Assembly (NCBI GenBank): GCA_964401705.1
Contig: CAYNZJ010000001.1
Span: 3,648 to 67,647, forward strand
Direction of reading: 5' to 3'
Length of the DNA stretch: 64,000 bases
Source of the DNA: an uncultured Candidatus Saccharibacteria bacterium
Lineage (GTDB): Bacteria > Patescibacteriota > Minisyncoccia > Phycocordibacterales > UBA9973
Every line of letters starts with the position of its first letter. Position 1 is the first letter of the stretch. Of this stretch, positions 10,365 through 64,000 are shown piece after piece. Under the pieces are notes generated by a model. It made no database searches. It was not told the DNA's origin and saw only the letters and a list, made by a program, of their open reading frames with translations. Position numbers and translations under genes: made by a program.

Positions 10365-10368
10365 CTTG

Positions 10369-10524: not shown

Positions 10525-10548
10525 TTTGTTTGCAAATGGTTTGCAAAT
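10525..10548. promoter_or_regulatory. tandem palindromic TTTGCAAAT boxes, copy 2, directly upstream of integrase start
   Basis: tttgtttgcaaatggtttgcaaat ends 12 nt before the ATG at 10561. Confidence 0.45.
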
Positions 10549-10560
10549 TATCTTTGTGAT

Positions 10561-11787: not shown

Positions 11788-11821
11788 CCTCAATTGCAGA
11801 TACTAAAGTAAATATTTAATT

Positions 11822-12100: not shown

Positions 12101-12101
12101 A

Positions 12102-12389
12102 ATGGAAGAACTAGAAGTAACTCCACCGGAACAATATTTAAAAGGATTTAATAAAGGATATAGTTTTTCAAAAACATATCCTGATGCAGGTCAGCAGGTA
12201 TTAGATATTTTTTCTTCTCAAACTAACCTTTCCAGTGAAAATGACTTTACCTCAGTTACTGGTATGATTGATGGAATTAATCAACATAAAATTGAACAAG
12301 AAAGAGAATTGATAAATGAAAGCTTGGAGGATATCAAGGATTTACGAAATCAACAGGCTGAGGAAAAGTCTCCTGACCTAAATATTTAG
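12102..12389 (+). CDS. hypothetical acidic protein
   Basis: ORF only. Confidence 0.25.
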   Translation: MEELEVTPPEQYLKGFNKGYSFSKTYPDAGQQVLDIFSSQTNLSSENDFTSVTGMIDGINQHKIEQERELINESLEDIKDLRNQQAEEKSPDLNI

Positions 12390-12475
12390 TATAGTAAAAT
12401 AATAATGATACAAGAAGAGGATTTGTCGGTTGGAGAATCGGCAGAAAGCAATATTGTATTGAGGCTAATGCCATG

Positions 12476-12504
12476 ATAGGACTGATTTCAGTCCTATTTT
12501 TTTA
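12476..12504 (+). terminator. rho-independent terminator; also contains 11-nt direct repeat of the tRNA-Leu fragment (ATGATAGGACT)
   Basis: ataggactgatttcagtcctat hairpin followed by ttttttt. Confidence 0.5.
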
Positions 12505-12557
12505 TTTCATGGTTGTGTCTCTAGATGGCTTCTACTCAAAAACAAAATGCTATATTT

Positions 12558-15570: not shown

Positions 15571-15935
15571 ATTTTAGATATCGTACTTGTTAAAATCAAA
15601 AAAGTACCTTGTATGGTTTGAAATGGGAAACAAACTTAAATATTGAATAAGGATAACCTTTTTGCAAAAAGTAAATAAAAAACCCCCTCATATGTGAGGA
15701 GGCCGAAGATTTTTCAACAGTGTAAGTAGCAATTGCCTCTAACCTGATTAATGATCGCGATTCACCAATCAGAGGTACCAGGTTCATCGGGTACTGGTAT
15801 ACATACAATCATAAAGAACATCTTCGTAGGAGCCTTGCATAAAGTATAGCATAAAGTTATTTAAATGTCAAGATTAATTAATTGTAAATCAATTATATAC
15901 AGTGAAATGCTTATTAGAATTACGAAAAAATAAAA

Positions 15936-15955
15936 ACCCTCAATTTTAATTGAGG
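15936..15955 (-). terminator. hairpin + T-run on minus strand (possible terminator of a minus-strand non-coding transcript)
   Basis: ccctcaattttaattgaggg is a perfect 9-bp stem. The minus-strand reading is followed by tttttatttttt. Confidence 0.3.
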
Positions 15956-15967
15956 GTAAAGAATTTG

Positions 15968-16130
15968 TTGATGTAGAAGCCTCAGAATTCACCATGCCTC
16001 ACGCCTAAGACTGGATGTAAGATAAGGAGGGCCACCAACGCCCTTTTGACATCAATGTTGATGTAGAGGCCTTTAAGATTTGCCATATAAATATGGTTGG
16101 GTTAAACAAAAAGGGCCACCAATCATTGTA
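15968..16130. repeat. two ~17-nt direct repeats TTGATGTAGARGCCT, each followed ~85 nt later by AGGGCCACCAA
   Basis: Seen at 15968 and 16056; one copy lies within the palindrome ACATCAATGTTGATGT. Confidence 0.4.
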
Positions 16131-16373
16131 ATAGTCGAAGAACTAACTCTTTGTTCAATTGTAGCATATTTGATATTATTTGTCAAATAATGATAATAAA
16201 AGTCAATAAATGAATACAAATAAAGAATAAATTTCACATTGCCATTTTTTAATGTATTGATTATGAGTAATATGTATTTTATTTAAAATTAGGTAACCAA
16301 TTTGTATTTTCTAAAGCAAAATTGATTTAAACCCAAACTAACAAATCTCAATTAAAACTCAAAACGTAAAAAC

Positions 16374-17516
16374 ATGGAAAACAAAAACACAATCGTCTAC
16401 ACAAACTATCACCATGAAGGAATTGACAACTACCTCGCATCATGGAAAAAACAAACTTCATCAGAAGTGCAACTAAAGGCGAAAACCAACGCCGGAAAGA
16501 AATTACCGAAAGCTATCGGTGATGATTTTAAACGGTACATTGGTTACTTTAAGGAAAAAGCTCAGGAATGTCTTCGAGACATAGATCGAATCTTAAAAAT
16601 CACTCCTGTTTTATTCAAGATCAAACAATTACGCGATAAACGCGATGAGATGGTCTTTAAAGCTAATGGAAAAAAGGAGGAGTTGGAATCAAAATCTGTT
16701 TCGCTCAATCCTGATGCCAATCACGCCGAACACAAATTAGTTAGAGCCGGTTCCATAATCGCTTTACTTATTCTTGTACTACTAAGCACAGCAGAGACCT
16801 TTCTGTCTTACAAACCGTTCTATTATCTAACAGGTAACAAAGTTTCCACCTGGACTATTTGTATTGTATTCGCAATACTTTGGATAATCGGAGCCGAGAA
16901 ATTTTCTAAGTTCATCAAAGATCAAGCGATTACAAAAAAAGGTATCAAACTTTTCTTTATTATCATAGCCTGCACCTTTGTATTCTATAGCATCGCCCAT
17001 TTACGTGTTTTAGAGAAAGCTTGTTCACGAGCTATTTTAAACGAAGAACCAATCCCAAGCTTTTTTGCTATCAACTTTACTGAAGCTTTAGTCCTTACAG
17101 GAATAGGCTGGGTGTTTTTCATCGGTGGGGTTTGGGTTTCTCAACTATCGCCATCTATTCAAGAAGTTAGGCAAGCCCTGATCCAAAGATTTAACCGAAG
17201 GAAGGCATTAAAAATTCAAAAGGAAATCTTACTTCTACAAGCTGAAATTGACGCAGAAAACGAAAAAATAGCCAAAGAAGAGCATGCAGCCATTTCTCTC
17301 TTAAATATACGTAAGCAGGCAATTAAGGAGGTTGTAGGCTATCTAGAATTCCTTTGCGAGGAGTACAAGGAGGTTAACTATTCATCACGTGTTGATGGTG
17401 TTTACCCCGACTGCTTTAACGAAAAGGTAACTTATGACATGGATACAATTGTACCTAATATCAAGGAAGATCTGGAATTTCAAATGGATAACGCTAACGC
17501 ATCTAAACTTAAATAA
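16374..17516 (+). CDS. hypothetical polytopic membrane protein with C-terminal coiled coil
   Basis: Several predicted TM helices (IIALLILVLLS, WTICIVFAILWIIG, LFFIIIACTFVFYSI, LVLTGIGWVFFIGGVWV). Confidence 0.3.
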   Translation: MENKNTIVYTNYHHEGIDNYLASWKKQTSSEVQLKAKTNAGKKLPKAIGDDFKRYIGYFKEKAQECLRDIDRILKITPVLFKIKQLRDKRDEMVFKANGKKEELESKSVSLNPDANHAEHKLVRAGSIIALLILVLLSTAETFLSYKPFYYLTGNKVSTWTICIVFAILWIIGAEKFSKFIKDQAITKKGIKLFFIIIACTFVFYSIAHLRVLEKACSRAILNEEPIPSFFAINFTEALVLTGIGWVFFIGGVWVSQLSPSIQEVRQALIQRFNRRKALKIQKEILLLQAEIDAENEKIAKEEHAAISLLNIRKQAIKEVVGYLEFLCEEYKEVNYSSRVDGVYPDCFNEKVTYDMDTIVPNIKEDLEFQMDNANASKLK

Positions 17517-17518
17517 TT

Positions 17519-18217
17519 ATGAAGACACTAATATTTACATCACTCATTCTAATTCTAATTGGATGTTCAGAAAACAAAGGAATTATCGAAAAGGAAGTCG
17601 TCTGTGTCATTGATGGCACAGATACTACCATCCATAAACCATCATTCAAAGAAATCAAACCCTTTTTGAATTTAACCGACAATGATTTTGGGTTGGTCTT
17701 TAAAACTAAAATGATAGGGGATATTGATTTCGGAAATTCTTTCGAGCTAAGTTTAAGCCCCAAGGATTATAGTATCGACGAAACCATTGAAGATCGGTTT
17801 TTCCGAAAAAAGAAGTTTTTAAAACATGCTCAGGCCGGATATTTAAAAGTTTCCTCCACCGCAACTCCTAAGGATCACTCAATAATTTATCGGGTAATCG
17901 CCAAGGAACTTAATAAGTTATCAGGTTCAAAAGCCAAACAGCGTACCTTGTTGGTAAACTCAGATCTTATGGAGAATTCAAAGGAACTTAATTTCTATAA
18001 TCCGAGACACTATAGCCTACTAATGAACAGCCCATGTGAAGTGGAGAAATTACTTATTAGACAATTGAAATTAATGGATTTAAAAGGCATTGAAGTTTAT
18101 TTCCTTTTTCAGCCAAAAGATTTCTATCAGAACGATACGTACAAAGCAATCTTGGACATTTATATCAAGATAATTAGCGAGGCAGGCGGGGTTTGTAAAA
18201 TCGGTAATGAATCTTGA
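17519..18217 (+). CDS. hypothetical lipoprotein
   Basis: Signal peptide with lipobox MKTLIFTSLILILIGC. Confidence 0.35.
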   Translation: MKTLIFTSLILILIGCSENKGIIEKEVVCVIDGTDTTIHKPSFKEIKPFLNLTDNDFGLVFKTKMIGDIDFGNSFELSLSPKDYSIDETIEDRFFRKKKFLKHAQAGYLKVSSTATPKDHSIIYRVIAKELNKLSGSKAKQRTLLVNSDLMENSKELNFYNPRHYSLLMNSPCEVEKLLIRQLKLMDLKGIEVYFLFQPKDFYQNDTYKAILDIYIKIISEAGGVCKIGNES

Positions 18218-18267
18218 CAATTTCGGCTTGAAAAGCGAAAATGTAACTACAGAAGTATCAGAATTAA

Positions 18268-18297
18268 AACGGGGATTGGAATTCATTCCCCGTTTTA
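18268..18297 (+). terminator. rho-independent terminator
   Basis: aaacggggattggaattcattccccgtttt. Confidence 0.45.
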
Positions 18298-18329
18298 TCT
18301 TAAACAATCGAATAATAGAATAATTATAA

Positions 18330-18506
18330 ATGGCTCACAAACAACATAGCGGTGGTATCGGCAACTTTCTATTGGGGGCAATAAAATTTATCGTGAAAGT
18401 CATATTTAGAATATGTGTTTTAGTATTGGTATTCATCGGTAAATTAATTGTCGCAATACTCGAAAAGATTATAGAGGTGGCGGAACACAAACATAATAAA
18501 CACTAA
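18330..18506 (+). CDS. small membrane protein (58 aa; not in supplied ORF track)
   Basis: MAHKQHSGGIGNFLLGAIKFIVKVIFRICVLVLVFIGKLIVAILEKIIEVAEHKHNKH. Sits directly upstream of the coupling-protein gene. Confidence 0.25.
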   Translation: MAHKQHSGGIGNFLLGAIKFIVKVIFRICVLVLVFIGKLIVAILEKIIEVAEHKHNKH

Positions 18507-18518
18507 CCAAATAAACAT

Positions 18519-19952
18519 ATGTTAGATATAATCGAAAGTCTATTCAAATTAATCTTCGAATTAATAACGGAGATATTCAAGGTTATTTTTAATGTCGCAC
18601 CGGATAAAAAAACCAAACTTGATGCAGGGTTTATGAAGGTAAGCAAATTGCTTTCCAGTTGGAATAAAGGGTTTTGTTTAAATGGAACTAAACATATTGG
18701 AATTAAGGCTAGCCATACATCTTGTCTTGTCCTCGGAGGAAGTGGCTCCGGCAAAACAGTATCAGTCTGTATACCAACGATTTATAATTTAGCCAAACAT
18801 GGACATAGCATTACTGTCCATGACCCATCGTCCGAATTGTATAATAATGTATCTGGCTACCTAGAATACTTAGGCTATTCAATAAAAGTAGTAAATTATT
18901 CAAATCCTAATATTTCAGATGGCTTTAATCCGATGTATCGCCTAAAAAATAGTGCCTCTGAAACACAAAAATTAGCATCGCTATTGGTACGAAATTCAAT
19001 GGGTGAAAATAACAAGGATCCGTTTTGGCAAACACAAGCATCATTACTTATTTATTTGATTATGCGAGTGTTGCAACACAAAAGCCACTGGTATCAAAAT
19101 TTAGCTAATGTAAAGAGGGTTCTGGACAATATGACAACCAAACCGGAAGCAATGGATATTTTAGTTGCGGAATGTAGAGATGAATCAATTTTATCGGAGT
19201 ATAAAAACTTTCTAATATTAGATAAGAAGCTGTATACCAGTATTATAAGTAGTGCAAGAGCCGCTTTATCCATTTTTACGGACCCTTTGGTTCAGACAGT
19301 AACGGCTTACGATAGTATTGATTTTGACTCTTTTCGGAAAGAAAAAACTGCCCTTTTTATTAACAACAAAACCGGAGATATCAAATACTATTCAGCGCTT
19401 TCATCTGTATTTTTTGAGCAGTTTTTTTCAAGTATAATGGATAAACTACCAAGTAAAGAGGATAAAAATATCTTCTTCATTATTGACGAGTCATCCTCGC
19501 TTTATTTACCATCAATGCAAATTGCTTTAAGCAACCTCAGAAAGTACAAGGCTGGAATAATGAATATTGCGCAAGACTTTAATCAGTTCCATATTTACGG
19601 AAGTCAAGAGGCAGAAGCAATTCGGACTAATTCATTTGCTAAAATATATTTCCCAGGACAACCCCTCAATACCGCCCAGGAATTAGAAAAATTACTTGGA
19701 TCTTTTGAATTTGAAGATGAGAAAGGCAATCGAAGAACTAGACCTCTTATGACCATAGATGAGATTCGGGCAATGGAACCGAATACAGCTTTAATTGTTG
19801 CTGGTTCTAATCGCGCAGTATTTACCAAGATGAAACCTTATTTTAAATCCTATAAGTATAAAAACTTATCAAAATACGCATTACCAGAAAGGCAGAGCCA
19901 AATACCCTTTGAAGAACTTCCATTAATACCATTACCAAATAAAATCAAATAA
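18519..19952 (+). CDS. type IV secretion coupling protein-like ATPase (VirD4/TraG/TraD family), lacking N-terminal TM region
   Basis: Walker A GGSGSGKT and Walker B IFFIIDESSS, with the usual spacing for this family. Confidence 0.6.
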   Translation: MLDIIESLFKLIFELITEIFKVIFNVAPDKKTKLDAGFMKVSKLLSSWNKGFCLNGTKHIGIKASHTSCLVLGGSGSGKTVSVCIPTIYNLAKHGHSITVHDPSSELYNNVSGYLEYLGYSIKVVNYSNPNISDGFNPMYRLKNSASETQKLASLLVRNSMGENNKDPFWQTQASLLIYLIMRVLQHKSHWYQNLANVKRVLDNMTTKPEAMDILVAECRDESILSEYKNFLILDKKLYTSIISSARAALSIFTDPLVQTVTAYDSIDFDSFRKEKTALFINNKTGDIKYYSALSSVFFEQFFSSIMDKLPSKEDKNIFFIIDESSSLYLPSMQIALSNLRKYKAGIMNIAQDFNQFHIYGSQEAEAIRTNSFAKIYFPGQPLNTAQELEKLLGSFEFEDEKGNRRTRPLMTIDEIRAMEPNTALIVAGSNRAVFTKMKPYFKSYKYKNLSKYALPERQSQIPFEELPLIPLPNKIK

Positions 19953-19974
19953 TTCCACCTTTTAAATATTCAAA

Positions 19975-20418
19975 ATGAAAACAACGAAATCAAATATCAA
20001 CAAAGATGATGTTCTAGTTAGAGCATCCTTTGAACTTTTTAATATGAAAGTTAAAGAGACCGAATCTGAACTATCAAAAATTGAAGTTGAACGTAATGAT
20101 ATTATTCAATCCATAACCAACTCAGAAACTGGAATAGCTAGTGACATTGAACGGTCACGACTTGATGAATTATCTGAGCGGGAAGCAACCCTTCATGAAA
20201 AATGGAATGACCTTGAACTGTCCTATCAAGTTGGTAGTCTGAGTGAATCTATTCAACAAGAAGACCAACAACCCACTAATGAAATAGAAGATCAATGGTT
20301 TGAAGATTCCAAATCTGAATATACTGAATCAGAAATTGAAGAGACAATGGATGAATTGAACGAAATAAGAGATGCTCAGTTATCGCAAGAACATGAACTG
20401 GATATGCCAGATTTTTAA
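19975..20418 (+). CDS. hypothetical acidic protein
   Basis: ORF; rich in Glu/Asp. Confidence 0.25.
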   Translation: MKTTKSNINKDDVLVRASFELFNMKVKETESELSKIEVERNDIIQSITNSETGIASDIERSRLDELSEREATLHEKWNDLELSYQVGSLSESIQQEDQQPTNEIEDQWFEDSKSEYTESEIEETMDELNEIRDAQLSQEHELDMPDF

Positions 20419-20433
20419 TTTTTACAACACTCA

Positions 20434-20880
20434 ATGAAAAAAATCCGAAGCACAGAACTCTTTAAATTCCTTCAGTTGAAGGGGGTTCTTGGTGGTTCGG
20501 ATATCGAAATTAAAAATGCTAAACATCAATATCGGGCAGAGTACAAACGGAAATGGAAACAAGCTCGCCTAAAGATTAAACCAGAACTTAGACCAAACTT
20601 CACAAAAAAAGAAATCGAATCCATCTCAAAAGCTGCCAAAGTTAGAGGCCTTACAAGTACAAACTTTGTTCGACAGTCTGCGCTTAGTCTTGCCTCAAAC
20701 AAAACCCTAATTCCAAATCAGGATAAACTATTAACCATTTTACAGAAATTAAGTATGGCCGGTATAAAAATCTCTAACAAAAAAGGTAACCCATTTTACG
20801 ACCCAGAAGTTAAAGAAGCCGACGACCTGCTTCAAGAAACTGAGAAATTATTGATGGCATACTTAGGTTATGATTATTAA
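20434..20880 (+). CDS. mobC: MobC-like mobilization (relaxosome accessory) protein
   Basis: KIKPELRPNFTKKEIESISKAAKVRGLTSTNFVRQSAL fits the MobC pattern R.....vRlT..E...l...A...G.S.S.y.R. Confidence 0.5.
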   Translation: MKKIRSTELFKFLQLKGVLGGSDIEIKNAKHQYRAEYKRKWKQARLKIKPELRPNFTKKEIESISKAAKVRGLTSTNFVRQSALSLASNKTLIPNQDKLLTILQKLSMAGIKISNKKGNPFYDPEVKEADDLLQETEKLLMAYLGYDY

Positions 20881-21760
20881 GTTATTGTCTCGCCATAGTC
20901 CTTCTTACGGGGGATTGATAGACTATTTACTCAAAGAAGGAAAAGGTGGAGATGACAAAACCCCTGAACCGCTACTTCATAATTTCCGAGGAACCAATAA
21001 AAATGAATGGGTAAAAGAGCTCTGTCAAAACGAAGCCTTTCGAAAAAACCCTCGAAAAGGTCAAATATACTTCCAACACGCTATCCTATCATTTAATAAT
21101 CTTGATTCACAAAACTTAACACCGGAGATATTAAAAGATCTGACTCAAAAATTTATTGAATTAAGAGGAAAGGATGGGATGTATCTAACTGCCCAGCACA
21201 ATGACCGAGATCATCTTCATATACATTGCCTAATTTCAGGACTTAAATTCAAAACTGGAAAGGCTTTTCGCTTGCCAAAAGACAAACTGAAAGACTTGAA
21301 AGTTCAACTTCAGAACTACCAAATAGAGAAATATCCCGAACTCAAAAATTCATTACCAAACCATGGATCTGGAAAAGAATATCTTACACCAAATGAATAT
21401 GGTGCTAAAATTAAAAACTCTAAATCCTATAAAAAATCTGAGCTAGCTCTAAAAATTAATGAGATTCTCAACACTTCAAGCACACAAGAAAATTTCCTTG
21501 AAAAGCTACGAGAGCAAGGCTACCACCATTATGAAAGAGGAGGCAAGATTTATGGAATTACGCTTGATGATAAAAATTACCGGTTTAACACTTTGGGGGT
21601 TAGCTTGGACAAAATGAATTCTTTGCCAAATGATCTAACTCAAGAAGAACAGGCATTGAAGGAAATAAGTGAGTTACGTCAACAGATGGAAACTAAAAAG
21701 GAAATCGAAACCGAACAAGACATTCCCGACGGGGATGAACCACCTTTACCCAATTTATAA
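20870..21760 (+). CDS. MobA/VirD2-family relaxase (mobilization nuclease domain)
   Basis: LLSRHSPSYGGLIDYLLKEGK N-terminal motif and histidine triad QHNDRDHLHIHCLIS (HxDxxHxHxH). Confidence 0.65.
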   Translation: MIIKLLSRHSPSYGGLIDYLLKEGKGGDDKTPEPLLHNFRGTNKNEWVKELCQNEAFRKNPRKGQIYFQHAILSFNNLDSQNLTPEILKDLTQKFIELRGKDGMYLTAQHNDRDHLHIHCLISGLKFKTGKAFRLPKDKLKDLKVQLQNYQIEKYPELKNSLPNHGSGKEYLTPNEYGAKIKNSKSYKKSELALKINEILNTSSTQENFLEKLREQGYHHYERGGKIYGITLDDKNYRFNTLGVSLDKMNSLPNDLTQEEQALKEISELRQQMETKKEIETEQDIPDGDEPPLPNL

Positions 21761-21884
21761 AAAAGGGGAATCGAAAGGGTCTCCCTTCGCAAGATCACAT
21801 GACCATTGGTCTGTAAGAATTACAGTCGACCGAGGGTCATGTTATCTTGCCAACTGCGCGTTGGGGCGTTTTAAACACTTGACA

Positions 21885-22316
21885 ATGAAAGATATAGAGC
21901 GTAGTGTAAATAAAAACAATAAAATGAAAAAGAGCAATTTATCAAAATTTTTAGTTTTGCTGACAGTTATTACGGCTATAACGTCGGGGTATTTTATAGG
22001 AGTACACAAATGCAAACAAGACATCGTAGAACATCTACCACTATCGATTCCACGAAAAATTAGAATTCGAACCTATGAAACAGTAAAAAACCTAAATGCC
22101 GATTCAATTATAAAGCCGTTTTTTGAAAGCTTTGAGTATCGCGAAGTTAATGTTAATTTATCCGGTGTTTTGTTACCAGGAAAGTATACTGGCTTGGTTA
22201 GATTTAAATCAGAATTAGGCACTAGTCAATGGTATGCAATAGATGCTTTTGCTTTAGATTTATCAACATTTATTGATACTTCTAAGATTGAAGTTATTGA
22301 CGGATATATTCCATAA
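21885..22316 (+). CDS. hypothetical membrane-anchored protein
   Basis: Start reset to MKDIERS, downstream of the relaxase overlap. Has a TM helix FLVLLTVITAITSGYFIGV. Confidence 0.3.
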   Translation: MKDIERSVNKNNKMKKSNLSKFLVLLTVITAITSGYFIGVHKCKQDIVEHLPLSIPRKIRIRTYETVKNLNADSIIKPFFESFEYREVNVNLSGVLLPGKYTGLVRFKSELGTSQWYAIDAFALDLSTFIDTSKIEVIDGYIP

Positions 22317-22339
22317 TTAACACATCAAAAAATAAATTA

Positions 22340-22368
22340 AGGGAGATTTCACTCCCTTTTTTATATTT
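22340..22368 (+). terminator. rho-independent terminator
   Basis: aagggagatttcactcccttttttat. Confidence 0.5.
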
Positions 22369-22593
22369 GTACAGACCAAATGCCTAAAAATCAAAAGCCA
22401 AATCAACCTAAATCAAATGAATTAGATAAAAAATCTGAAGTATCACCGAAAGAGAAGAAGGTAGAATTTTGGACATTTATCAGAGAACATCAGTTAATAC
22501 CTGCTGCAATTGGAGCAGTATTAGCAATAATAGGTATTATTTGTACTTGGTATCTTTGGAAAAGACACCTCTGTATCAGACATTACAATTCAA

Positions 22594-23340
22594 ATGATAA
22601 TCGCATACCATCAAGGTATGGAATCAATTGAAAACTATAGCAAAGGCACCATCGCTTATTCATGCCGTATCATAAAAAACTTTTTCGAGTATATCTCGGA
22701 TTGTAATATTGAATGCCTAAATCCAAAACAAATCCGGTCACTAAAATACGTTCAACCGGATAAAGATATAATGACTTCAAGTCTTTTAAAAAGAATGGAC
22801 AATGAATTGAATGAACAATTTTATGAAGACCTAATCATAAAGTTGATGGTTCATATTCTATACGATACTGGTATGCGTGTATCTGAACTTTGTGATTTGG
22901 ATATTTCAAATCTTGAAGAAACAGATACGCCAGGCTTGCGCTGTGCAACCATTCGACGTCGCAAAAGTTTGCGATACAACACGGTTGTATGGGGAAAGGA
23001 AACAAACCGCTTGATGAATCTTTATTTAGGATTAAGGTTATGTTTGGATGTAAATCAAACAGACGCCTTATTTGTAAATAGGAAATCAAAAGGGAACAGG
23101 ATAACGACTAGAACCGTTCAACGATGGATAAAGGAAATTTGCATGCGAGCAAATATTCAAGAGAATATAACACCGCATAGTTTTAGGCATGGTAAAGCCC
23201 ATCAGGTTTTAAACCAGAGTGGTAATGTTAGAGATGTGCAAGCAATCTTAGGCCATGTAAATCCGGCTTCATCATTTAGTTATCTTTCGTTAAACCGTCA
23301 AAGTCAGATATCCGTGTCAGGGAAGTACTTGCCTTCTTAA
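22594..23340 (+). CDS. tyrosine recombinase (XerD-like; possibly N-terminally truncated or frameshifted relative to ORF 22380-22631)
   Basis: HSFRHGKAHQVLNQSGNVRDVQAILGHVNPASSFSYL catalytic box. N-terminus YSKGTIAYSCRIIKNFFEYIS resembles the core-binding domain. Confidence 0.65.
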   Translation: MIIAYHQGMESIENYSKGTIAYSCRIIKNFFEYISDCNIECLNPKQIRSLKYVQPDKDIMTSSLLKRMDNELNEQFYEDLIIKLMVHILYDTGMRVSELCDLDISNLEETDTPGLRCATIRRRKSLRYNTVVWGKETNRLMNLYLGLRLCLDVNQTDALFVNRKSKGNRITTRTVQRWIKEICMRANIQENITPHSFRHGKAHQVLNQSGNVRDVQAILGHVNPASSFSYLSLNRQSQISVSGKYLPS

Positions 23341-50201: not shown

Positions 50202-50365
50202 ATTATTTTTCTTGTCTCGCCATAGCTTTATGCATAGGCGGATATTAACTTATAATTTTTTAATAATTTATATTTGGATTATATACTAAGCTCATATTTT
50301 TGACAAGTATTTAGCGACCGCAAAAAGCTTGTAAAATGTGGATAACTATATTATATTATAAATAT

Positions 50366-50923
50366 ATGGCAAAGAAAATAGATTATTCAAAAAAAATACT
50401 TAAAATACTAGCGGATAAACCGGCTGTTTTGATTAGTGATATAGTTCAAAGCCCAAACCCTCTCCAAACCTCCCCCTTATCAAGGGGAGGCACCGACATA
50501 AAATCCAAATATGCAATTACAAGGTCATTAAAATCTCTTGCTGATGCTGGGTTTATTGAAAATATCTCATCAGGACAAAATAGCTACGCTAGACTAACTA
50601 AACAAGGTAAAAGAAAATTAAACAGTATCAACCTAGAGAGCGATACCGCAATGGTTAATACTTCTTGGGATGGCAATTGGCGAATCATCATGCTGGATTT
50701 ACCAGAAAATAGAAAAAACGAACGCGAAAGTTTGCGCTATTTATTAAAAAAGGCTGGGTTTATTTGTCTTAAAAATTCGGCTTGGATATCACCTTATCCA
50801 TTTGAATTTATGTTTTACAATATCAAAAAAGATCTTGGCTTAACCAATGAAATGATGATATTTGTTACAAATAAAATTGACGAATTAACTAAAGAAGAAT
50901 TAAATAAAATATTTAAAATCTAA
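50366..50923 (+). CDS. PaaX-like transcriptional regulator, carrying an in-frame GC-rich repeat insertion
   Basis: WDGNWRIIMLDLPENRKNERESLRYLLKKAGFICLKNSAWISPYP matches the PaaX C-domain pattern. The insertion at 50455-50490 encodes NPLQTSPLSRGG. Confidence 0.45.
   Translation: MAKKIDYSKKILKILADKPAVLISDIVQSPNPLQTSPLSRGGTDIKSKYAITRSLKSLADAGFIENISSGQNSYARLTKQGKRKLNSINLESDTAMVNTSWDGNWRIIMLDLPENRKNERESLRYLLKKAGFICLKNSAWISPYPFEFMFYNIKKDLGLTNEMMIFVTNKIDELTKEELNKIFKI
50455..50490. repeat. GC-rich palindromic element (family A, partial copy) inside CDS
   Basis: aaaccctctccaaacctcccccttatcaaggggagg; compare with 43223-43257. Confidence 0.55.
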
Positions 50924-54676: not shown

Positions 54677-55246
54677 TTAATATTTTCTGATGACACCTTT
54701 TACAATTGCCCAAATTTTTAAATCATTTACAGGGTAAATTGGCTTAAAATCCTTATTTGCGGGTTCAAGCCAAACCTTATCACCATCTTTTTTAAAATAT
54801 TTCATTGTAAATTCTCCATCAACTTCAGCAATTACTATTTGTCCATCGCGAGCAAACTGTGACTTTTCCGCTATAACCATATCACCATCAGCAATGTGAG
54901 CTTCTATCATTGAATTACCATCAACTTCTAGTATATAAGTAGAATCTTTTTTACGAATTAAAAAGTTGTTTAAATTAATTGTAGTTTCCATTACATCTTC
55001 CGATGGTGACGGAAAACCAGCCTTGACTAACCCTAATAATGGCACATCACCAAATGACGAACTAGGTATAAGCCGGCCCAGTGGGTCTTTTTCTACAATG
55101 CCTGCCTCTATAAGTTTTTCCACTAAACGGGCGACAGTATTTTTAGATTTAAAGTCAAATAATTTCATCATCTCAGTATAGGTAGGCATTCGGTTAGATG
55201 AAGCATAAAAATCGACAAGTTTATTTTTGTATTCGTTAATATTCAT
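54677..55246 (-). CDS. lexA: LexA repressor
   Basis: wHTH N-terminus, VPLLGLVKAG cleavage region, GNSM serine, S24 peptidase domain. Confidence 0.85.
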   Translation of the reverse strand: MNINEYKNKLVDFYASSNRMPTYTEMMKLFDFKSKNTVARLVEKLIEAGIVEKDPLGRLIPSSSFGDVPLLGLVKAGFPSPSEDVMETTINLNNFLIRKKDSTYILEVDGNSMIEAHIADGDMVIAEKSQFARDGQIVIAEVDGEFTMKYFKKDGDKVWLEPANKDFKPIYPVNDLKIWAIVKGVIRKY

Positions 55247-55249: not shown

Positions 55250-55459
55250 TTAAAATTGTAAAGATGAAGCTGAAAAAAATTTAGAGAAAAAACTTTTTAC
55301 AGAATTCTTATGAGTATGTTGATAAATTCTTTTTAATAATAATTTGTGCTCTTTAGCTAATTCAAAATATTTCTCTCCAGAAATTATTCTTAAATCAATC
55401 TCTCTATTTATCTTTTGCAATTCTCGTTGCAAAGTTTGTATATATTGTTCTCTTGTCAT
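55250..55459 (-). CDS. small coiled-coil protein co-transcribed upstream of lexA
   Basis: ORF 69 aa; operon position. Confidence 0.3.
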   Translation of the reverse strand: MTREQYIQTLQRELQKINREIDLRIISGEKYFELAKEHKLLLKRIYQHTHKNSVKSFFSKFFSASSLQF

Positions 55460-55472: not shown

Positions 55473-55490
55473 GTGAACGCTCGTTCACAT
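55473..55490. promoter_or_regulatory. candidate LexA operator (Cheo-box-like GAAC-N4-GTTC)
   Basis: tgtGAACgctcGTTCaca lies 14 nt upstream of the operon start, inside a larger imperfect palindrome tctcttgtcatg...catgcaagaga. Confidence 0.5.
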
Positions 55491-55514
55491 GCAAGAGATA
55501 ATACTGTGGATAAC

Positions 55515-58186: not shown

Positions 58187-58560
58187 AAAGATATTATATC
58201 ATTTCCCTCTATAAATTTTAATGATATTGAATTTACGCAATGGCGAATGTTTTTATCGGTTAGCATTTCGCCCTCAAATACATGACCTAAATGCCCACCA
58301 CAATTGGCACACGTGATTTCAGTCCTTATACCATCGGTATCAAGCGTGCGTTTTACCGCGCCTTCAATCTCTTGGTCAAAGCTTGGCCAGCCACAAGTAC
58401 TTTCAAATTTATCTTTTGAATTATACATTGGCGCATTACATTGCCGGCACACATACACACCGTGGGCAGTATTGTTAACATATTCACCTGTAAAAGGCAT
58501 TTCGGTACCCTTGCCCAATATTACCCTCTTTTCTTCGTCTGTTAGATCGTTTAATTGCAT
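58183..58560 (-). CDS. msrB: peptide-methionine (R)-S-oxide reductase
   Basis: CRQCNAPMY...GWPSF...[19 protein letters not shown]. Confidence 0.85.
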
Positions 58561-58564
58561 AAAT

Positions 58565-59011
58565 TTATTTTACAATATACCAAACCAGCATTGCCAAACC
58601 ACCCCACCAACCAATATCTGAAATTATCAAACTTACCATAATTTTATTTTGCAATGTTTGTGGCAACAATTCGCTCGCCCTACCCTCGGCCTCTGTTTTT
58701 AATAAAAACGGGCTTACATAAAATGATAAAAATATTCCGTTTAAAATCAAAACTATTGCAATAATTGCATGGTACATTGGTACGGAAGCTATTGGCACAT
58801 TGCGGTAAAAAATAAATCCACCAATAATTGCAAGTATCATACCCACCCAAATCATGGGCTTGGTTACTTTGTGAGTGCGAATTGTCGCCTCGGTCCAATA
58901 GCTAGACTTGCGCCCCAAAAATCCATGAATATCAATAACACTCACAGCACCCAGGCCTATAACAAAGCCAGCGATCATAACAAATAAACCAATAAAATTT
59001 AATGTAATCAT
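58565..59011 (-). CDS. hypothetical membrane protein
   Basis: Start reset to MITLNFIG; several TM helices. Confidence 0.3.
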
Positions 59012-59406
59012 TATCTGTTTAAATAAGTAATTGTTAATTGCAAAACTGTCGCAAAGCTTACCCATAATAAGTATGGTATTTGCATATACACCACCCATTT
59101 CGCATGCGGGTATATTGCAATCATTAACCAAATTATTGTAGCCAATACCAATACAATATCAACTGCAGCCAATAAATTATTTTTCAAACCAAATTGAAAA
59201 TAAGTAAAAGAAAAATTAAAAATCAAATTCAATATAAATGGCAGTGCCACAATAAAAGGAATTTGTTTTTGATAAAGCATTATAAAAACCTTACCAAATG
59301 ATATTGCAATCAATGTGTATAAGAAACTCCACACTGGCCCAAATAAAAAGCTTGGCGGCGCCCAACTTGGCCTAATCAATGTGCTGTACCAATTGTATGA
59401 TTCCAT
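59011..59406 (-). CDS. tspO: TspO/MBR family tryptophan-rich sensory protein
   Basis: NWYSTLIRPSWAPPSFLFGPVWSFLYTLIAI. Confidence 0.6.
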   Translation of the reverse strand: MESYNWYSTLIRPSWAPPSFLFGPVWSFLYTLIAISFGKVFIMLYQKQIPFIVALPFILNLIFNFSFTYFQFGLKNNLLAAVDIVLVLATIIWLMIAIYPHAKWVVYMQIPYLLWVSFATVLQLTITYLNR

Positions 59407-59426
59407 ATATTTATTATACCACAGGC

Positions 59427-59819
59427 CTATATACCCATAAAAACAATCAAACCAGAGGTTAAAAATACAAACACGTGGTACCACGGGTGTGATTTATTAT
59501 AATCACCAAACTTAAAACCGTAAATAAAAAACAGTATTGTTAGCGACAATAATATAGCCAAAGGCATTTGCCATTCGCCACCAACCTTATTAAATATAAA
59601 ATAGTACATATATGCGTGCGCCCCAATACCTACCACCCAGTCGGCAGTTCGCGCAAAAACAAAAAGTTTTGATTTGCGATTGTATAAACTTAAATAGTGA
59701 TACATTGGCGATGCCACGCACAGCCCCACACAGAATGCAAAATACAACCACTCGCCTTTCCAAGCAGAAATCAATGTCGGCACAAGTAAAAAAATATTTG
59801 AAGTTAAAATTTTCGGCAT
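59427..59819 (-). CDS. hypothetical membrane protein
   Basis: ORF with TM helices. Confidence 0.25.
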   Translation of the reverse strand: MPKILTSNIFLLVPTLISAWKGEWLYFAFCVGLCVASPMYHYLSLYNRKSKLFVFARTADWVVGIGAHAYMYYFIFNKVGGEWQMPLAILLSLTILFFIYGFKFGDYNKSHPWYHVFVFLTSGLIVFMGI

Positions 59820-59820
59820 G

Positions 59821-60192
59821 TTATATAAAAATGATTATATAATAATAAATCAAGCAAAGCACCACCCACGCAATTGAAAATTTCGGACAAATTAGGCCTT
59901 TATAATTGAGCCACTCCCCACTATAATCCCAAAGCATAATATTTTTGTATTTCAAGTATGTGTAGCCAGTTATAAATTCGATGCTTGTTGTAAAAACTAA
60001 AATCAATATTATTAAAATATAAATTGGTAAATTATATTGCGACAAAATGTACAAAAATGCAGTGCTTAAACCATACATTTGCAAGTTTATAAAAAGTGGC
60101 CAAACTATTTTTTTGGCATTAATCGATCGGTATAGGAATTCTAAAACAAACCCAAAACCTAAACCAATTAAATAGTGTATTAGTATTTGCAT
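59821..60192 (-). CDS. hypothetical membrane protein
   Basis: ORF with TM helices. Confidence 0.25.
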   Translation of the reverse strand: MQILIHYLIGLGFGFVLEFLYRSINAKKIVWPLFINLQMYGLSTAFLYILSQYNLPIYILIILILVFTTSIEFITGYTYLKYKNIMLWDYSGEWLNYKGLICPKFSIAWVVLCLIYYYIIIFI

Positions 60193-60287
60193 GGGTTTAT
60201 TTTAACACACTCGCAATGACTATTTTTATCATGCTTTGATTTGACATTTAACTATTTTAGTGTTAATTTAAAGAAAATTTAGATACA

Positions 60288-60770
60288 ATGGAATTAATAG
60301 ATTTCAACCAAAAACCAACATCAATAGCGCCATACGAATTTGGCCAAGATGTAAATCGGGAAAATTTTGTAAATTTTCTAATCCTTAGTTATGCTGTTTC
60401 CAGAGGAAACTTTGTAATCCAAAAAGTATTCTTTGTAATGTATGAGAAAAAATTCAACTTCCCTTATAAACAAGTAATTCAGGATTTTTATGAAAGTGGC
60501 GGGTACGATGCGTTCACCGAAGAAGAACAACAAATCTTTCAAAAAGCATTTCGTGGCGTTTCTGCTCATATGGAAAAGTATATTGAGATGGAAATTGAGG
60601 ACGAAATTCGAGATGAAATCGATGGCCTATGTGATAGACCAGAAAGTGAAAGAGAAATTATTTTCAACTCGGCACTAAATTTCTTTAATTTTGATTCTAT
60701 TAATTCAGTTCTTGAATTCAACAAAATAGCAAAAGAATTTAATGGCAGAACTGAATCTTCGTTAAATTAA
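60288..60770 (+). CDS. hypothetical acidic protein
   Basis: ORF. Confidence 0.25.
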   Translation: MELIDFNQKPTSIAPYEFGQDVNRENFVNFLILSYAVSRGNFVIQKVFFVMYEKKFNFPYKQVIQDFYESGGYDAFTEEEQQIFQKAFRGVSAHMEKYIEMEIEDEIRDEIDGLCDRPESEREIIFNSALNFFNFDSINSVLEFNKIAKEFNGRTESSLN

Positions 60771-60790
60771 AAAACTTAATACATTTACAA

Positions 60791-60815
60791 GGCGAGTATA
60801 AACCTCGCCTTTTTT
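60791..60815 (+). terminator. rho-independent terminator
   Basis: aaggcgagtataaacctcgcctttttt. Confidence 0.5.
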
Positions 60816-60859
60816 ATTTAGCTTAAGAGTAGATTATTTTTTGAAATATAAAAAACAAA

Positions 60860-61567
60860 TTACCCTTTATACTTCAAAAACCTCTTCCTCTTCCCCTCTT
60901 CCATTCGTTCAATCGCATAGCGCAATGTTGTGCGGGGTAGGTTTTTATAATTTTTGATCAAAAAGTCTTCGCAAGTTTTTGCATCCTTCTTCCACACTTC
61001 GCGCAAGGCCCAGCCCACGGCTTTGTGCATTAGGTCTTCTTTGTCGGCCAAAAGCTTTTTAGCAATGCGCAGTATTGGCCCATAAACGCCGTATTTAATA
61101 CTTGCCATTGTGGCAATTATTGCCACGCGCCGGTACCACATACTTTTTGATACTGCTAATTCATCTAAAACATTCTTACTAGCAAGTCCTTTATACACCG
61201 CCATACCCAATATTCTACTAGCTGACAAATCTACCAAATCCCAATTGTTTACCCTTTTTAAATTCTTTAAATAAAAGTCCAGCACCTTTTGCTTTACCCT
61301 TTCATCACTTGCCCGTTCGTATTGTTTAACCAATATCAAAATACCCACAAGCCTAACCTCGTGTATTGGCGAATTCAAAGCCTGCCTAATATCGGCAAAT
61401 CCAAGGTGCGCAAATTTACCAACCACCTTGCGCGCATCGGGGTTATTAACACCCATAAATTTATCACCCTCGCCATATTGCCCCACCCCAGTTTTAAAAA
61501 ACCATTCATTAGACTTTTGCCGTTTGGCGCTGGCGTACTTTTTTAATTCGTTATAAATTTCGGACAT
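60860..61567 (-). CDS. DNA alkylation repair enzyme family (AlkC/AlkD-like HEAT-repeat) protein
   Basis: KSNEWFFKTGVGQYGEGDKFMGVNNPDARKV...NWDLVDLSA. Confidence 0.55.
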   Translation of the reverse strand: MSEIYNELKKYASAKRQKSNEWFFKTGVGQYGEGDKFMGVNNPDARKVVGKFAHLGFADIRQALNSPIHEVRLVGILILVKQYERASDERVKQKVLDFYLKNLKRVNNWDLVDLSASRILGMAVYKGLASKNVLDELAVSKSMWYRRVAIIATMASIKYGVYGPILRIAKKLLADKEDLMHKAVGWALREVWKKDAKTCEDFLIKNYKNLPRTTLRYAIERMEEGKRKRFLKYKG

Positions 61568-61647
61568 TATTTTTTGTTTAACTCGCTCAAAATACCTGAA
61601 GTTAAATTTTACACATAATAAGCTTCATATAATTAACCGAGCTTTAA

Positions 61648-62841
61648 TTAAAACTTTGCCCGATCACCATTTTCATCATATCCATAAGATCTAATAAAAC
61701 CAGCGGCATTCCAGACCATATCAAAAACAGGTTTAAGAGCCTTAGTGATATCTTCCTCAAAGTCATTAATTATTACTTCAGGTAGATAAATTTCATTTTC
61801 TGTAATTTCGTTTGTATCTCTTGAGATATAGGAACTTTGTAGTTGGATGGAATAACCCTGAATTCCAATAATTGTAACAAAAATAAAATAAGGAGGCTCA
61901 ATTTCTAATATCTTCAATAAATCAAGGTTCTCTTTTATTGATTTAATCAAAACATTTTCAATTGCTACCATTGGTAAATTTTTTCTATCACCATCTTCGT
62001 ATGCAATTCTAGGAGCAATTATACGACAATCAAAACCTTCAATAGTTCCATTCCTAAATATCTGAGTATAACTGCTAGTTTTACCATTATTGCTTGAATA
62101 TACATAAACACCATCAAGGTTAATTCTATGACTATAACCAAAAGCATAGAGAGGCTTAAATAAATTTATTTTACCCTCACTAAGATCAAGCAATTGCTTA
62201 CTTGTTAGTTTATTTGTTTCTATGATTCCAGATAGCGGGACAATATGCGCAGTTAGAAAATTATCAGCACTCTCCAGGTTTACAGGGCCATCATTTGCCT
62301 TGATATCAAAAATTCTCTTTTTCCTAAATTCTCGAATAGTATCAATCATGCTCCCGTTAGCGCCAAAAGCACTTTTTAATTCAAATACATCCATCTCGTA
62401 TTTACCATTACTATTTCTTTTGTAAAATCGGTTTGAATTTTTGAAAACAACCCTATGAGGACTATTAAGACTTGGTTTAATTCTGATTATTAAAATGAAC
62501 TTTTTATCATCAACATCAATAACTTTTATGTCCGTATCAATTCTTGGAGATATCCCATCTCTAATTATGTTTTCCAGTCTTTGAATTTCAGTATCGGTAT
62601 TTTCTATTTCAATTCCAAAATCAGCCTTGATTTCTTTTTTGTCTTCAAACACTCCAAAAATTAAATCACCACCATCGGTATTAGCAAGAGATGAAACGTC
62701 CGCAAGAAATTCTTTCTTATCATCGTCTCCATTTCCTGGCAAGGCAGATTTGTATTCAAGGGTTTTACCTTCAAAAACCTGGTTATCAACCAGTTGCTTA
62801 ATGTCGTCTTTTGTTATTTCTGATAGTTTCTTTTGAATCAT
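61648..62841 (-). CDS. AlbA_2 (Schlafen-like) DNA-binding domain protein with uncharacterised C-terminal domain
   Basis: EGKTLEYKSALPGNGDDDKKEFLADVSSLANTDGGDLIFGVFEDKKEI matches the AlbA_2 pattern E..~lEfK......~....ktv.AfANt.GG.l.~GV.d. Confidence 0.5.
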   Translation of the reverse strand: MIQKKLSEITKDDIKQLVDNQVFEGKTLEYKSALPGNGDDDKKEFLADVSSLANTDGGDLIFGVFEDKKEIKADFGIEIENTDTEIQRLENIIRDGISPRIDTDIKVIDVDDKKFILIIRIKPSLNSPHRVVFKNSNRFYKRNSNGKYEMDVFELKSAFGANGSMIDTIREFRKKRIFDIKANDGPVNLESADNFLTAHIVPLSGIIETNKLTSKQLLDLSEGKINLFKPLYAFGYSHRINLDGVYVYSSNNGKTSSYTQIFRNGTIEGFDCRIIAPRIAYEDGDRKNLPMVAIENVLIKSIKENLDLLKILEIEPPYFIFVTIIGIQGYSIQLQSSYISRDTNEITENEIYLPEVIINDFEEDITKALKPVFDMVWNAAGFIRSYGYDENGDRAKF

Positions 62842-62918
62842 ATTATTCGAATTATTCTTTTTCCTTTCTGTTAGGCCCCTCTTTTGATTTAGCCAGGGCA
62901 ATCCTATTTATTAATAAA

Positions 62919-63122
62919 CTATTTGGATTGAACAAACCTAAATCCATCACCACCATTAGAGTGAGAAATATTGCCTGAAAAATTACCAATCTTTATTTGT
63001 TTTATCTCAACAGATATTTTACGAATTTCTTTTAAATCTTTTTTAGCAGAAATTGCGCTCAAGATTGAAACAACACCAGCAATAATTCCAACAGAGCTAG
63101 AAACAATACTGACTATATCCAT
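62919..63122 (-). CDS. small membrane protein
   Basis: ORF 67 aa; TM helix VGIIAGVVSILSAI. Confidence 0.25.
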   Translation of the reverse strand: MDIVSIVSSSVGIIAGVVSILSAISAKKDLKEIRKISVEIKQIKIGNFSGNISHSNGGDGFRFVQSK

Positions 63123-63216
63123 ATTTATTTATTTTAATTTATAATTGTGTGGATAACCGCTTTTACTTTCGGTATATATTCGGTTATAATAGAATCATAA
63201 TAAAAATTAAAATAAT

Positions 63217-64000
63217 ATGCAAACTCTCACAAAAAAACAAAAAGAGGTCTTAGACTTTATTAAGGCCTACATTGCTAAAAACAATATATCTCCAACCATT
63301 GAAGAGATTCGTAAGAAATTAAAACTAAAAGCTATTTCAACCGTCCATGAACATATCGATTCCCTAAAAGAAAAAGGCTATATTTCTAAAACCCAAAATA
63401 TTTCACGGGGTATAACTCCCAAGAAAAAAATAGAGGATTATATTAAAATACCTCTTTTAGGTACAATTGCTGCTGGTCCAGCTAATGAAGCCGTAGAAGA
63501 ATTTAGTGGTTATATAAATTTACTGAAAAATGAAATAAAATCTCCAGAAAAATGTTACGCTCTTAAGGCTGTTGGAGATAGTATGATAGATGACGGAGTT
63601 TTTGATGGAGATATTGTTATTATTAGACAGCAAAATACTGCTGATGACGGTAAAATGGTAGTTGCTATTATTGATGATAACCAGACTACTTTAAAAAGAA
63701 TTTATCATGAGAAAAAAAGAATAAGACTTCAGCCAGCAAATCAAAATTTCTTACCATTTTATAGAACAGAGGTAGAAATTAGAGGTGTTGTAGAAAAAAT
63801 TATTAGAAACCCAAATAATGAAATTAATGATGAAGAAAAAGGATATAAAAATTTAAAAAATATTTCCACAAATCAAAATAATAAAATAAATAAATTCTAC
63901 AACAAAGATAAAAATGTAAAAATTTACCACGGTGACTCTTTAGATATATTAGATCAAGAAACTGATCTTAAATTTGATATGATTTATTTAGACCCACCTT
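63217..64000 (+). CDS. LexA-like repressor/S24 autopeptidase fused in frame to a DNA methyltransferase domain (3' end beyond window; not in ORF track)
   Basis: My own translation gives MQTLTKKQKEVLDFIKAY...IPLLGTIAAGPANEAVEE...KAVGDSMIDDG...TLKRIY...EVEIRGVVEKIIRN (LexA). Then ~35 aa of N/K-rich linker with no stop. Then KIYHGDSLDIL...FDMIYLDPP (N6/N4 MTase motif IV). Confidence 0.55.
   Translation, partial: MQTLTKKQKEVLDFIKAYIAKNNISPTIEEIRKKLKLKAISTVHEHIDSLKEKGYISKTQNISRGITPKKKIEDYIKIPLLGTIAAGPANEAVEEFSGYINLLKNEIKSPEKCYALKAVGDSMIDDGVFDGDIVIIRQQNTADDGKMVVAIIDDNQTTLKRIYHEKKRIRLQPANQNFLPFYRTEVEIRGVVEKIIRNPNNEINDEEKGYKNLKNISTNQNNKINKFYNKDKNVKIYHGDSLDILDQETDLKFDMIYLDPP

Follow-up and report, generated by a model that had tools for sequence, protein, structure and literature searches.

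A complete LexA fused in frame to a DNA methyltransferase in Patescibacteria: a probable self-repressing component of type II restriction-modification systems

Why should a LexA repressor run without a stop codon into a DNA methyltransferase, and what would such a protein do? The question is raised by the end of a 64,000-nucleotide (nt) stretch of DNA from an uncultured Candidatus Saccharibacteria bacterium (GenBank assembly GCA_964401705.1, contig CAYNZJ010000001.1, positions 3,648 to 67,647), the whole of which we call the window. Here an open reading frame (ORF) starts with an ATG at 63217 on the plus strand and stays open for 261 codons up to the window end, which gives the first 783 nt of the gene; the whole gene would measure about 1.65 kb, with about 870 nt lying beyond 64000. 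We estimate a probability of roughly 0.7 that the encoded protein is a self-repressing, RecA*-cleavable modification methyltransferase of a type II restriction-modification (R-M) system, and its features suggest that systems of this kind may tie self-protective methylation to DNA breakage. What we show by computation is that the fusion exists and recurs, that it lies in an R-M context, that promoter and operator are conserved, that head and operator covary, and that the catalytic residues are conserved.

We begin with the N-terminal part, which an earlier note on this DNA had read as a complete LexA. Residues 1-198 match the NCBIfam lexA model TIGR00498 with 174.2 bits against a cut-off of 110.95, so the equivalog threshold is passed, and Pfam finds both LexA domains. 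The winged-helix (wHTH) DNA-binding domain (aa 1-65; 63217-63411, plus strand, as is every feature of this ORF) matches LexA_DNA_bind (PF01726) with 65.8 bits; its recognition helix contains AISTVHEHIDSL, and S41, T42, H44 and H46 are nearly invariant across the 81 fusions compared here. The S24 peptidase and dimerisation domain extends to the LexA C-terminus (aa 79-198; 63451-63810), with a Peptidase_S24 (PF00717) match of 94.7 bits over aa 79-192. The self-cleavage bond Ala86-Gly87 (63472-63477) lies in LLGTIAAGPANEAV, the catalytic Ser122 (63580-63582) in GDSM and the catalytic Lys160 (63694-63696) in TLKR, while EVEIRGVVEKIIRN ends the LexA at N198 (EIRGVVEKIIRN198). All the cleavage-site, Ser, Lys and C-terminal motifs that the note had quoted are thus in place. 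Among the 81 fusions A86, S122 and K160 are each present in 81 and G87 in 80, and this conservation of catalytic residues supports the predicted SOS cleavability.

Beyond N198 the frame does not stop. The tail (aa 199-261) consists of an N/K/E-rich linker of 37 aa (aa 199-235; 63811-63921), close to the 35 or so first described, with neither a stop nor an in-frame start codon, followed by KIYHGDSLDILDQETDLKFDMIYLDPP, the 26-aa N-terminus of a predicted beta-class N6-adenine/N4-cytosine DNA methyltransferase (KIYHGDSL...DMIYLDPP; 63922-64000) that is cut by the window end. When the 63 tail codons are shuffled the frame stays open in 0.1% of trials, and the other two frames over the tail hold 6 and 13 stops. 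No ATG, GTG or TTG is found in frame between aa 199 and 254; the methyltransferase part is therefore unable to start on its own. The 26-aa fragment of the window gives no Pfam match, being too short for one.

The rest of the domain can be seen in a close relative, locus L008, a contig from a species-representative metagenome-assembled genome (MAG) that was assembled independently of the window. From 63138, just 5' of the promoter, onward the two are 94% identical in nucleotides, their proteins are 96% identical, and over the 261 shared codons they differ by substitutions only, with zero indels. The codon changes are 28 synonymous and 8 non-synonymous in the LexA part and 3 synonymous and 2 non-synonymous in the linker. 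The L008 protein of 549 aa carries LexA_DNA_bind, Peptidase_S24 and N6_N4_Mtase in one chain (Pfam), the last (PF01555) scoring 119.4 bits over aa 254-545, which bears out the earlier assignment of the truncated domain to the N6/N4 enzymes. Motif IV at 259 and motif I at 511 (DPVAGSGTTG) follow the beta-class order; motif IV itself, previously given as DPPY, has to be corrected, since L008 has DPPF and the window fragment ends in DPP. The best Protein Data Bank (PDB) match over the entire L008 protein is LexA (3k2z, E = 3e-29, query residues 4-195). The N-terminal part matches LexA structures, 8trg and 8gms being among the matches of the protein, and the C-terminal part is related to EcoP15I Mod, DpnA, CcrM, M.MboIIA and M.RsrI, among others. 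A search of genome and metagenome contigs for the exact 69 nt at the window end returned no match, and the contig with a 95%-identical homolog of the second LexA-like gene of the window (discussed below) stops 2 kb from that gene, short of the fusion locus.

The next question is how far the architecture extends. We searched for relatives in one genome per GTDB species with an alignment of the LexA part only; 385 were found, and the best 80 loci were examined, a sample that is nearest to the query and may be enriched for fusions, and in which many MAG contigs bear generic organism labels. In 78 of the 80 the LexA frame runs into a full-length methyltransferase and then a stop, with extensions of 280-428 aa. 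The two exceptions (L039 and L066) have short tails resembling the Dam-type linker, followed by unrelated genes. At the protein level, many close LexA homologs from Patescibacteria metagenomes (50-61% identity) carry PF00145, PF01555 or PF02086, and the database name of several of them is merely "transcriptional repressor LexA, partial". Phage and plasmid collections of cultured organisms contain no record covering at least 80% of the 549-aa fusion, and the LexA genes in IMG/VR are mostly unfused, with one different fusion (L103). IMG/VR also has nine predicted viral contigs of 6-9 kb (L094-L102) with a LexA gene that is not fused. Seven of the nine contigs start right at the lexA gene, which suggests that lexA is where the boundaries of a provirus or element are being called, or else that a mobile element carries this type of LexA. 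Literature combining LexA, methyltransferase fusion, Patescibacteria or the Candidate Phyla Radiation, and R-M yielded no description of the architecture; a 2017 Environmental Microbiology paper on the Patescibacteria SOS response, which lay outside this search, might mention it. A 2025 review of R-M biology treats methyltransferase repressors and restriction alleviation and leaves LexA unmentioned.

Could the joint be an artefact, in which separate lexA and methyltransferase genes are brought together by a sequencing or assembly error, or in which the methyltransferase has a start of its own? Some related metagenome genes are indeed frameshifted, namely the C5 fusions at L007 (8797-8830, an A6 run where A5 keeps the frame) and L006 (4330-4365), and at L090 the two genes form an unfused operon in which the lexA stop is followed by 2 nt and the methyltransferase ATG. 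Against this stand the linker without an in-frame start, the other frames full of stops, the independent L008 assembly with its uninterrupted frame and base substitutions only, and the 78 of 80 related loci that are fused with proper stop codons. An artefact of this kind is hardly credible: the in-frame LexA-methyltransferase fusion is real, and the two worries voiced at the outset, a frameshift or assembly error and an internal start, are both removed. Many contigs end within or beside LexA-methyltransferase genes (e.g., L002, L050, and many of the proteins named "LexA, partial"). Such contig breaks and frameshifts are likely to come from strain-variable R-M cassettes that break assemblies, or from sequencing errors. 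We also considered whether the C5 fusions are split or truncated methyltransferases, because their database matches are all at most 431 aa, and rejected it: the genome loci give 521-537 aa, and the short C5 proteins are contig-end fragments or frameshift carriers, not real short forms.

What kinds of methyltransferase has this LexA been joined to? By motif class the 78 fused loci divide into C5 type A (59) and type B (3), D12/Dam type A (5) and D12 type B (2), an N4/N6 type that has FCGSGT (5) and beta N4/N6 (4). The last of these classes consists of two unrelated modules, one of the kind found in the window and L008 and the other of the kind found in L009, L076 and L077, which brings the total to seven modules defined by sequence; they belong to three Pfam families, C5, Dam-like D12 and N4/N6. 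The linkers vary between modules. In a neighbour-joining tree of the LexA domains the C5 type A fusions form one large clade with the other types intermixed, and parsimony requires at least 15 state changes. Seven modules, three families and at least 15 changes of state indicate that selection acts on the LexA-methyltransferase linkage itself. This argues that the physical linkage matters, for which repressor-to-enzyme stoichiometry, S24 dimerisation or docking on RecA filaments are possible reasons.

The fusions also exchange their parts. L175, a locus of the window subtype, encodes a fusion 78% identical to that of L008, and the identity is unevenly distributed: 86% in S24 and 91% in the methyltransferase, against 34% in the linker and 44% in the wHTH. 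Its wHTH is instead 95% identical to that of P0032 (locus L001), whose methyltransferase is unrelated (25%). The fusions are thus mosaics, a pattern that implies recombination at domain boundaries. More than one copy can be found on a contig. At L176 (4716-10316) a decayed copy of the window subtype, with a broken LexA and a 92-aa nuclease remnant, lies beside an intact LexA-C5 fusion with its convergent gene, and L019 (C5) and L076 (beta N4/N6) are about 14 kb apart on one contig, CAISUD010000041.1.

We turn now to the DNA that the head would bind. Upstream of the ORF, on the plus strand, lies a sigma-70-type promoter with TTTACT (-35) at 63162-63167, a 17-nt spacer and TATAAT (-10) at 63185-63190, which matches 10 of the 12 consensus positions. 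The spacer is filled by a direct repeat, TTCGGT-ATATA-TTCGGT (TTCGG-N6-TTCGG; 63168-63184, plus strand; TTCGGTATATATTCGGT), the predicted LexA operator. This layout is common to most related loci irrespective of methyltransferase type, and TTCGG-N6-TTCGG with at most one mismatch is found in 74 of 81 upstream regions as compared with 33 of 4825 background windows of 150 nt. A position weight matrix of the repeat site has one match of at least 10 bits in the 64 kb of the window, the fusion operator itself (31.6 bits), and a search of about 0.8 Mb of flanks for further convincing operator sites found none.

Does the repeat follow the protein? The half-site covaries with residues 41-46 of the recognition helix: ST[IV]H[EQ]H goes with TTCGG at about 66 loci, STAH[FY][HY] with TTCTA at 5 of 5, SGV[YH]QH with TTCAG or TTCGG at 5 of 5, STAHHH with TTCGA at 2 of 2, and PTIHEH with TTAGG at the only one. 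L175 provides a natural module swap, in which it shares the TTCTA repeat with P0032 (L001), while L008 and the window have TTCGG; wHTH and operator move together, as one would expect a repressor and its binding site to do. Because the half-site covaries with the recognition helix, the direct repeat is very probably the LexA operator, and the self-repression proposed in the earlier note gains computational support from a conserved predicted operator in the gene's own promoter. A direct-repeat LexA operator has a precedent in Alphaproteobacteria, GTTC-N7-GTTC, which also has an 11-nt period (PMC8565304).

A second conserved site, TGTGGATAAC, lies just 5' of the -35 box (63148-63157, plus strand) and resembles a DnaA box. 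It holds a perfect DnaA-box 9-mer, TGTGGATAA, the reverse complement of TTATCCACA, which is usually followed by C. The exact 9-mer is present in 49 of the 81 LexA-methyltransferase promoters (67 with at most one mismatch) against 20 of 4825 background windows, and it mostly starts 19-25 nt (mode 22) upstream of the repeat operator. We considered TGTGGATAAC as the LexA operator and rejected it: the repeat stays with this LexA family at loci that lack the box (L088, L092) and covaries with the helix, and the box also occurs at promoters without the repeat. In the window, the perfect 9-mer is found as well at 50337-50346, in the promoter of a gene for a PaaX-like regulator (50366-50923).

Is the methyltransferase an orphan, or does it belong to an R-M system? 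The earlier note had allowed for both. The next gene downstream usually converges on the fusion, with a second methyltransferase lying in between at 7 loci; where the two are direct neighbours they typically meet tail to tail, -22 to +70 nt and mostly 1-6 nt apart. These convergent genes form a handful of families that track the methyltransferase type, and about half of them match restriction-endonuclease or nuclease families in Pfam: RE_Bsp6I at 18 loci, MvaI_BcnI at 5 (172 bits, always with the N4/N6 FCGSGT type), RE_NgoFVII_C at 5, a PD-(D/E)XK nuclease (PDDEXK_5) at 6, and HNH at L001. An HTH_3 controller (C) protein of 73-120 aa is nearby in 15 loci, and in 14 of 80 it lies just past the restriction endonuclease (R) gene on the same strand. 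The unfused second methyltransferase before the convergent gene is a feature of the D12 type A loci and some of the beta type. With convergent genes of which about half belong to nuclease families, and with a frequent C protein, an R-M component fits better than an orphan enzyme. Features of a regulator balancing the modification methyltransferase (M) against R are present in the LexA head borne by the methyltransferase, with its predicted operator, and in the HTH_3 C protein of relatives. A divergent vsr gene stands beside 8 C5 loci and a large serine recombinase near ten; the fusion loci sit among defence genes (AbiEii, HEPN_AbiU2, ThsB_TIR, Schlafen-like).

For the window subtype, L008 and L175 share a convergent ORF, 76% identical between them, with CxxC pairs and a DH...N...N motif. 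Its alignment with the L001 HNH nuclease is weak (pairwise E = 0.038). L175 additionally carries an HTH_3 C protein (50 bits). Past 64000 we would accordingly expect the rest of M and then, on the opposite strand, convergent genes for a putative HNH-like R and a small C protein.

From these features we infer that the protein binds DNA, is cleaved in response to RecA* and leaves an active fragment, with consequences for the physiology of the cell, and propose the following mechanism. The LexA head would bind TTCGG-N6-TTCGG in the spacer of its own promoter and so make methyltransferase output self-limiting. Damage, including breaks that the system's own endonuclease makes at under-methylated sites, leads to RecA filaments on single-stranded DNA, and S24 would then cut Ala86-Gly87; the head would be released, the promoter derepressed and more methyltransferase made, and the S24-methyltransferase fragment would probably still be active after the cut. 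Since the ends of M and R meet and leave no space for a terminator between them, the raised M transcription may also read antisense into R. The net effect would be damage-induced restriction alleviation together with homeostatic self-protection.

Several observations weigh against this proposal. Some families of convergent genes (cl2, cl4, cl6, cl12, cl15) are without annotation, and for the putative endonuclease of the window subtype the searches of Pfam and PDB gave nothing significant, its sole support being the HNH-like alignment above. The window ends 26 residues into the methyltransferase, with the R and C genes outside it, and P0037 (L003) is followed by PAP2, topA and dprA with no nuclease visible nearby. 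The unfused lexA genes described below share the promoter and operator, and the reach of this regulator may therefore be wider than the R-M module. Finally, E. coli LexA fragments are degraded after cleavage, and a similar fate could lower rather than raise the methyltransferase level.

The window contains another LexA-like gene, and it has to be asked which of the two is the usual repressor. The stand-alone paralog of 189 aa (54677-55246, minus strand) is separate from the fusion and forms an operon with a 69-aa ORF (55250-55459). The promoter of this operon, also on the minus strand, has a palindrome, GTGAACGCTCGTTCAC (55473-55488), a GAAC-N4-GTTC box of the Gram-positive type, and another TGTGGATAAC (55505-55514). 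In NCBIfam the paralog passes the thresholds for LexA and for UmuD alike; it scores 134 bits with TIGR00498, against 174 for the fusion, and 15 bits for the wHTH, against 66. The view that the fusion is a second LexA paralog beside a canonical lexA at 54677-55246 is therefore half right: there are two paralogs, the one at 54677-55246 lying on the minus strand, and by the HMM (hidden Markov model) scores the fused copy is the more canonical. The 120 best homologs of the paralog, 69-95% identical and on contigs of up to 844 kb, are all stand-alone and 186-192 aa long apart from a few fragments. It is probably the lineage's housekeeping SOS-type repressor, with an operator of its own.

Unfused lexA genes of the same family as the fusion have the identical promoter and operator type, and they too adjoin methyltransferases. 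At L088 and L089 the lexA is divergent from a type III Mod/Res pair, at L092 and L093 it is divergent from an Eco57I/MmeI-like enzyme with ThsB_TIR nearby, and at L090 and L091 its stop is followed, after 2 nt, by the ATG of an 839-aa C5+N6 methyltransferase gene. The operon form at L090 is a plausible precursor of the fusion. Other defence genes near the unfused loci are HEPN_AbiU2 and ThsB_TIR, and the lexA of this group generally seems to be embedded in defence islands.

Three further explanations of the fusion deserve to be weighed. The fused LexA might be the cell's general SOS repressor over a wider damage regulon, and the methyltransferase a passenger whose expression thereby becomes coupled to SOS. 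By HMM score the fused copy is the most canonical LexA of the window, its promoter and operator are shared by unfused lexA genes of Patescibacteria, the fused form predominates in the 80 nearest species, and the idea is compatible with what we propose for the methyltransferase itself. We nevertheless regard it as unlikely, given the single operator in the window and the lack of convincing extra sites in the flanks, the coexistence in the genome of a conserved stand-alone LexA-like repressor with a GAAC-N4-GTTC box, and the mosaic modules with at least two cassettes per contig (L019 with L076; L176); multiple mosaic cassettes are the behaviour of R-M cassettes and not of a single-copy master regulator.

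A more drastic possibility is damage-triggered suicide, in which cleavage induced by RecA* exposes degrons, the S24-methyltransferase fragment is degraded, methylation drops, and the endonuclease kills the damaged or phage-infected cell, much as in abortive infection. E. coli LexA fragments are substrates of ClpXP and Lon, and the cleavage machinery of the fusions is conserved. Cleavage of a LexA-like protein is known to reveal degrons (PMC5742171), lapsed methylation in R-M systems can kill the cell (PMC3874152, PMC5737642), and defence genes surround the loci. The same cleavage would also derepress the promoter and replenish the methyltransferase, however, and the methylation already on the chromosome lasts until replication, which makes suicide distinctly unlikely. 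It might instead be that S24 serves mainly to dock the methyltransferase on RecA-single-stranded-DNA filaments, so that recombining, repaired or transforming DNA is methylated in place, a protection of the DpnA type. The LexA C-terminal domain does bind RecA* filaments, and 8trg and 8gms among the L008 matches are presumably structures of this binding. It also fits that physical fusion, and not an operon, was selected over seven methyltransferase modules, that D12-type loci have two methyltransferases, as DpnII does, and that dprA is near one locus (L003). Yet the strong conservation of the wHTH and the operator, together with their joint exchange, shows that selection clearly acts on transcriptional control, and docking normally leads to cleavage rather than to stable tethering; recruitment as the main role is very improbable.

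We return to the self-repressing, cleavable methyltransferase and ask how it compares with known systems. Methylation has to stay ahead of restriction in R-M systems, and the controls known to ensure this are C proteins, small HTH heads of methyltransferases and antisense RNA; in the R-M literature searched we found no DNA-damage input to these controls. M.SsoII, M.Ecl18kI, M.EcoRII and M.MspI are dual-function methyltransferase repressors with an N-terminal DNA-binding domain that autoregulates (PMC12707154, PMC2760811, PMC3978073). The fusion resembles these in having a DNA-binding head, a flexible linker and a methyltransferase, with a predicted operator at its own promoter and a presumed tuning of the balance between M and R. 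It differs in that the head is not an HTH of about 70 aa but a complete LexA of about 200 aa with hinge and S24, and could for this reason be inactivated by RecA*. Moreover, M and R are convergent rather than divergent with a shared control region, one LexA head is combined with seven modules from three Pfam families rather than one family, and a C protein is often present too. The short N-terminal HTH and the divergent M and R genes sharing a control region, which define the SsoII/Ecl18kI family, are both absent; the fusion appears to act like these methyltransferase repressors without belonging to their family.

Compared with the LexA SOS repressor (TIGR00498; PDB 3k2z, 1jhh, 3jso), the fusion has the full-length match, the wHTH, the Ala-Gly bond, the Ser/Lys dyad and a predicted operator in its own promoter. 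It departs from that repressor in the 350-aa enzyme at its C-terminus, in its R-M linkage, in the several copies that one contig may hold, in the coexisting stand-alone paralog and in the lack of a detectable regulon past its own promoter in the available sequence. C proteins such as C.PvuII are likewise dedicated factors that time or balance M and R; they are separate polypeptides, not known to sense DNA damage, and at fusion loci would work beside the LexA head. In type I R-M systems, damage induces restriction alleviation through degradation of HsdR by ClpXP (PMC12707154). The proposed mechanism would similarly turn self-restriction down upon DNA damage or repair, by a type II route in which the methyltransferase is derepressed by cleaving its built-in repressor, as opposed to proteolysis of the R subunit. 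What appears new here is a cleavable LexA as the head of an autoregulating R-M methyltransferase; autoregulation borne by a methyltransferase is itself already known. The fused form is widespread in Patescibacteria and lends itself to experiment.

Elsewhere in the window, the stretch directly upstream of the fusion is a variable island. Between a shared 155-aa gene and the LexA-methyltransferase promoter, window positions 58201-63138 and L008 positions 516-2137 are completely different, with MsrB, membrane proteins, an AlkD-like DNA alkylation repair gene, a Schlafen/AlbA_2 protein and a 67-aa membrane protein on the window side, and AbiEii toxin fragments on the L008 side. Positions 8972-23340 encode an ArdC-like anti-restriction protein (ArdcN and a zincin peptidase), two tyrosine integrases, a type IV secretion system coupling protein, a MobA/VirD2 relaxase and a sigma-54-type AAA+ protein, and represent a probable integrated mobilisable element. 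The GC content is elevated at about 6-10 kb of the window.

A wider proposal can be offered tentatively. A complete, cleavable LexA may be the standard regulatory head of type II R-M methyltransferases in Patescibacteria, swapped as a module (promoter with wHTH, S24, methyltransferase) among different chemistries. Breaks would then directly raise protective methylation, the DnaA-box-like site would add a possible replication input, and autoimmunity control and SOS sensor would be one molecule.

The finding has consequences for how these genomes are read. Fusions of 500-620 aa are named just "transcriptional repressor LexA", which hides the methyltransferase and the R-M context, and reconstructions of the Patescibacteria SOS response that take every LexA match as a master regulator may be misled. 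Thanks to the natural swaps, matched pairs of helix and half-site (STVHEH with TTCGG, STAHYY with TTCTA) are already at hand for experiments and for the design of synthetic repressors that respond to damage. If the proposal is true, a methyltransferase bearing an SOS sensor would connect the sensing of genome integrity directly, and in a way that can be tested, with epigenetic self-marking, and it could explain how small-genome episymbionts with limited repair tolerate many R-M systems.

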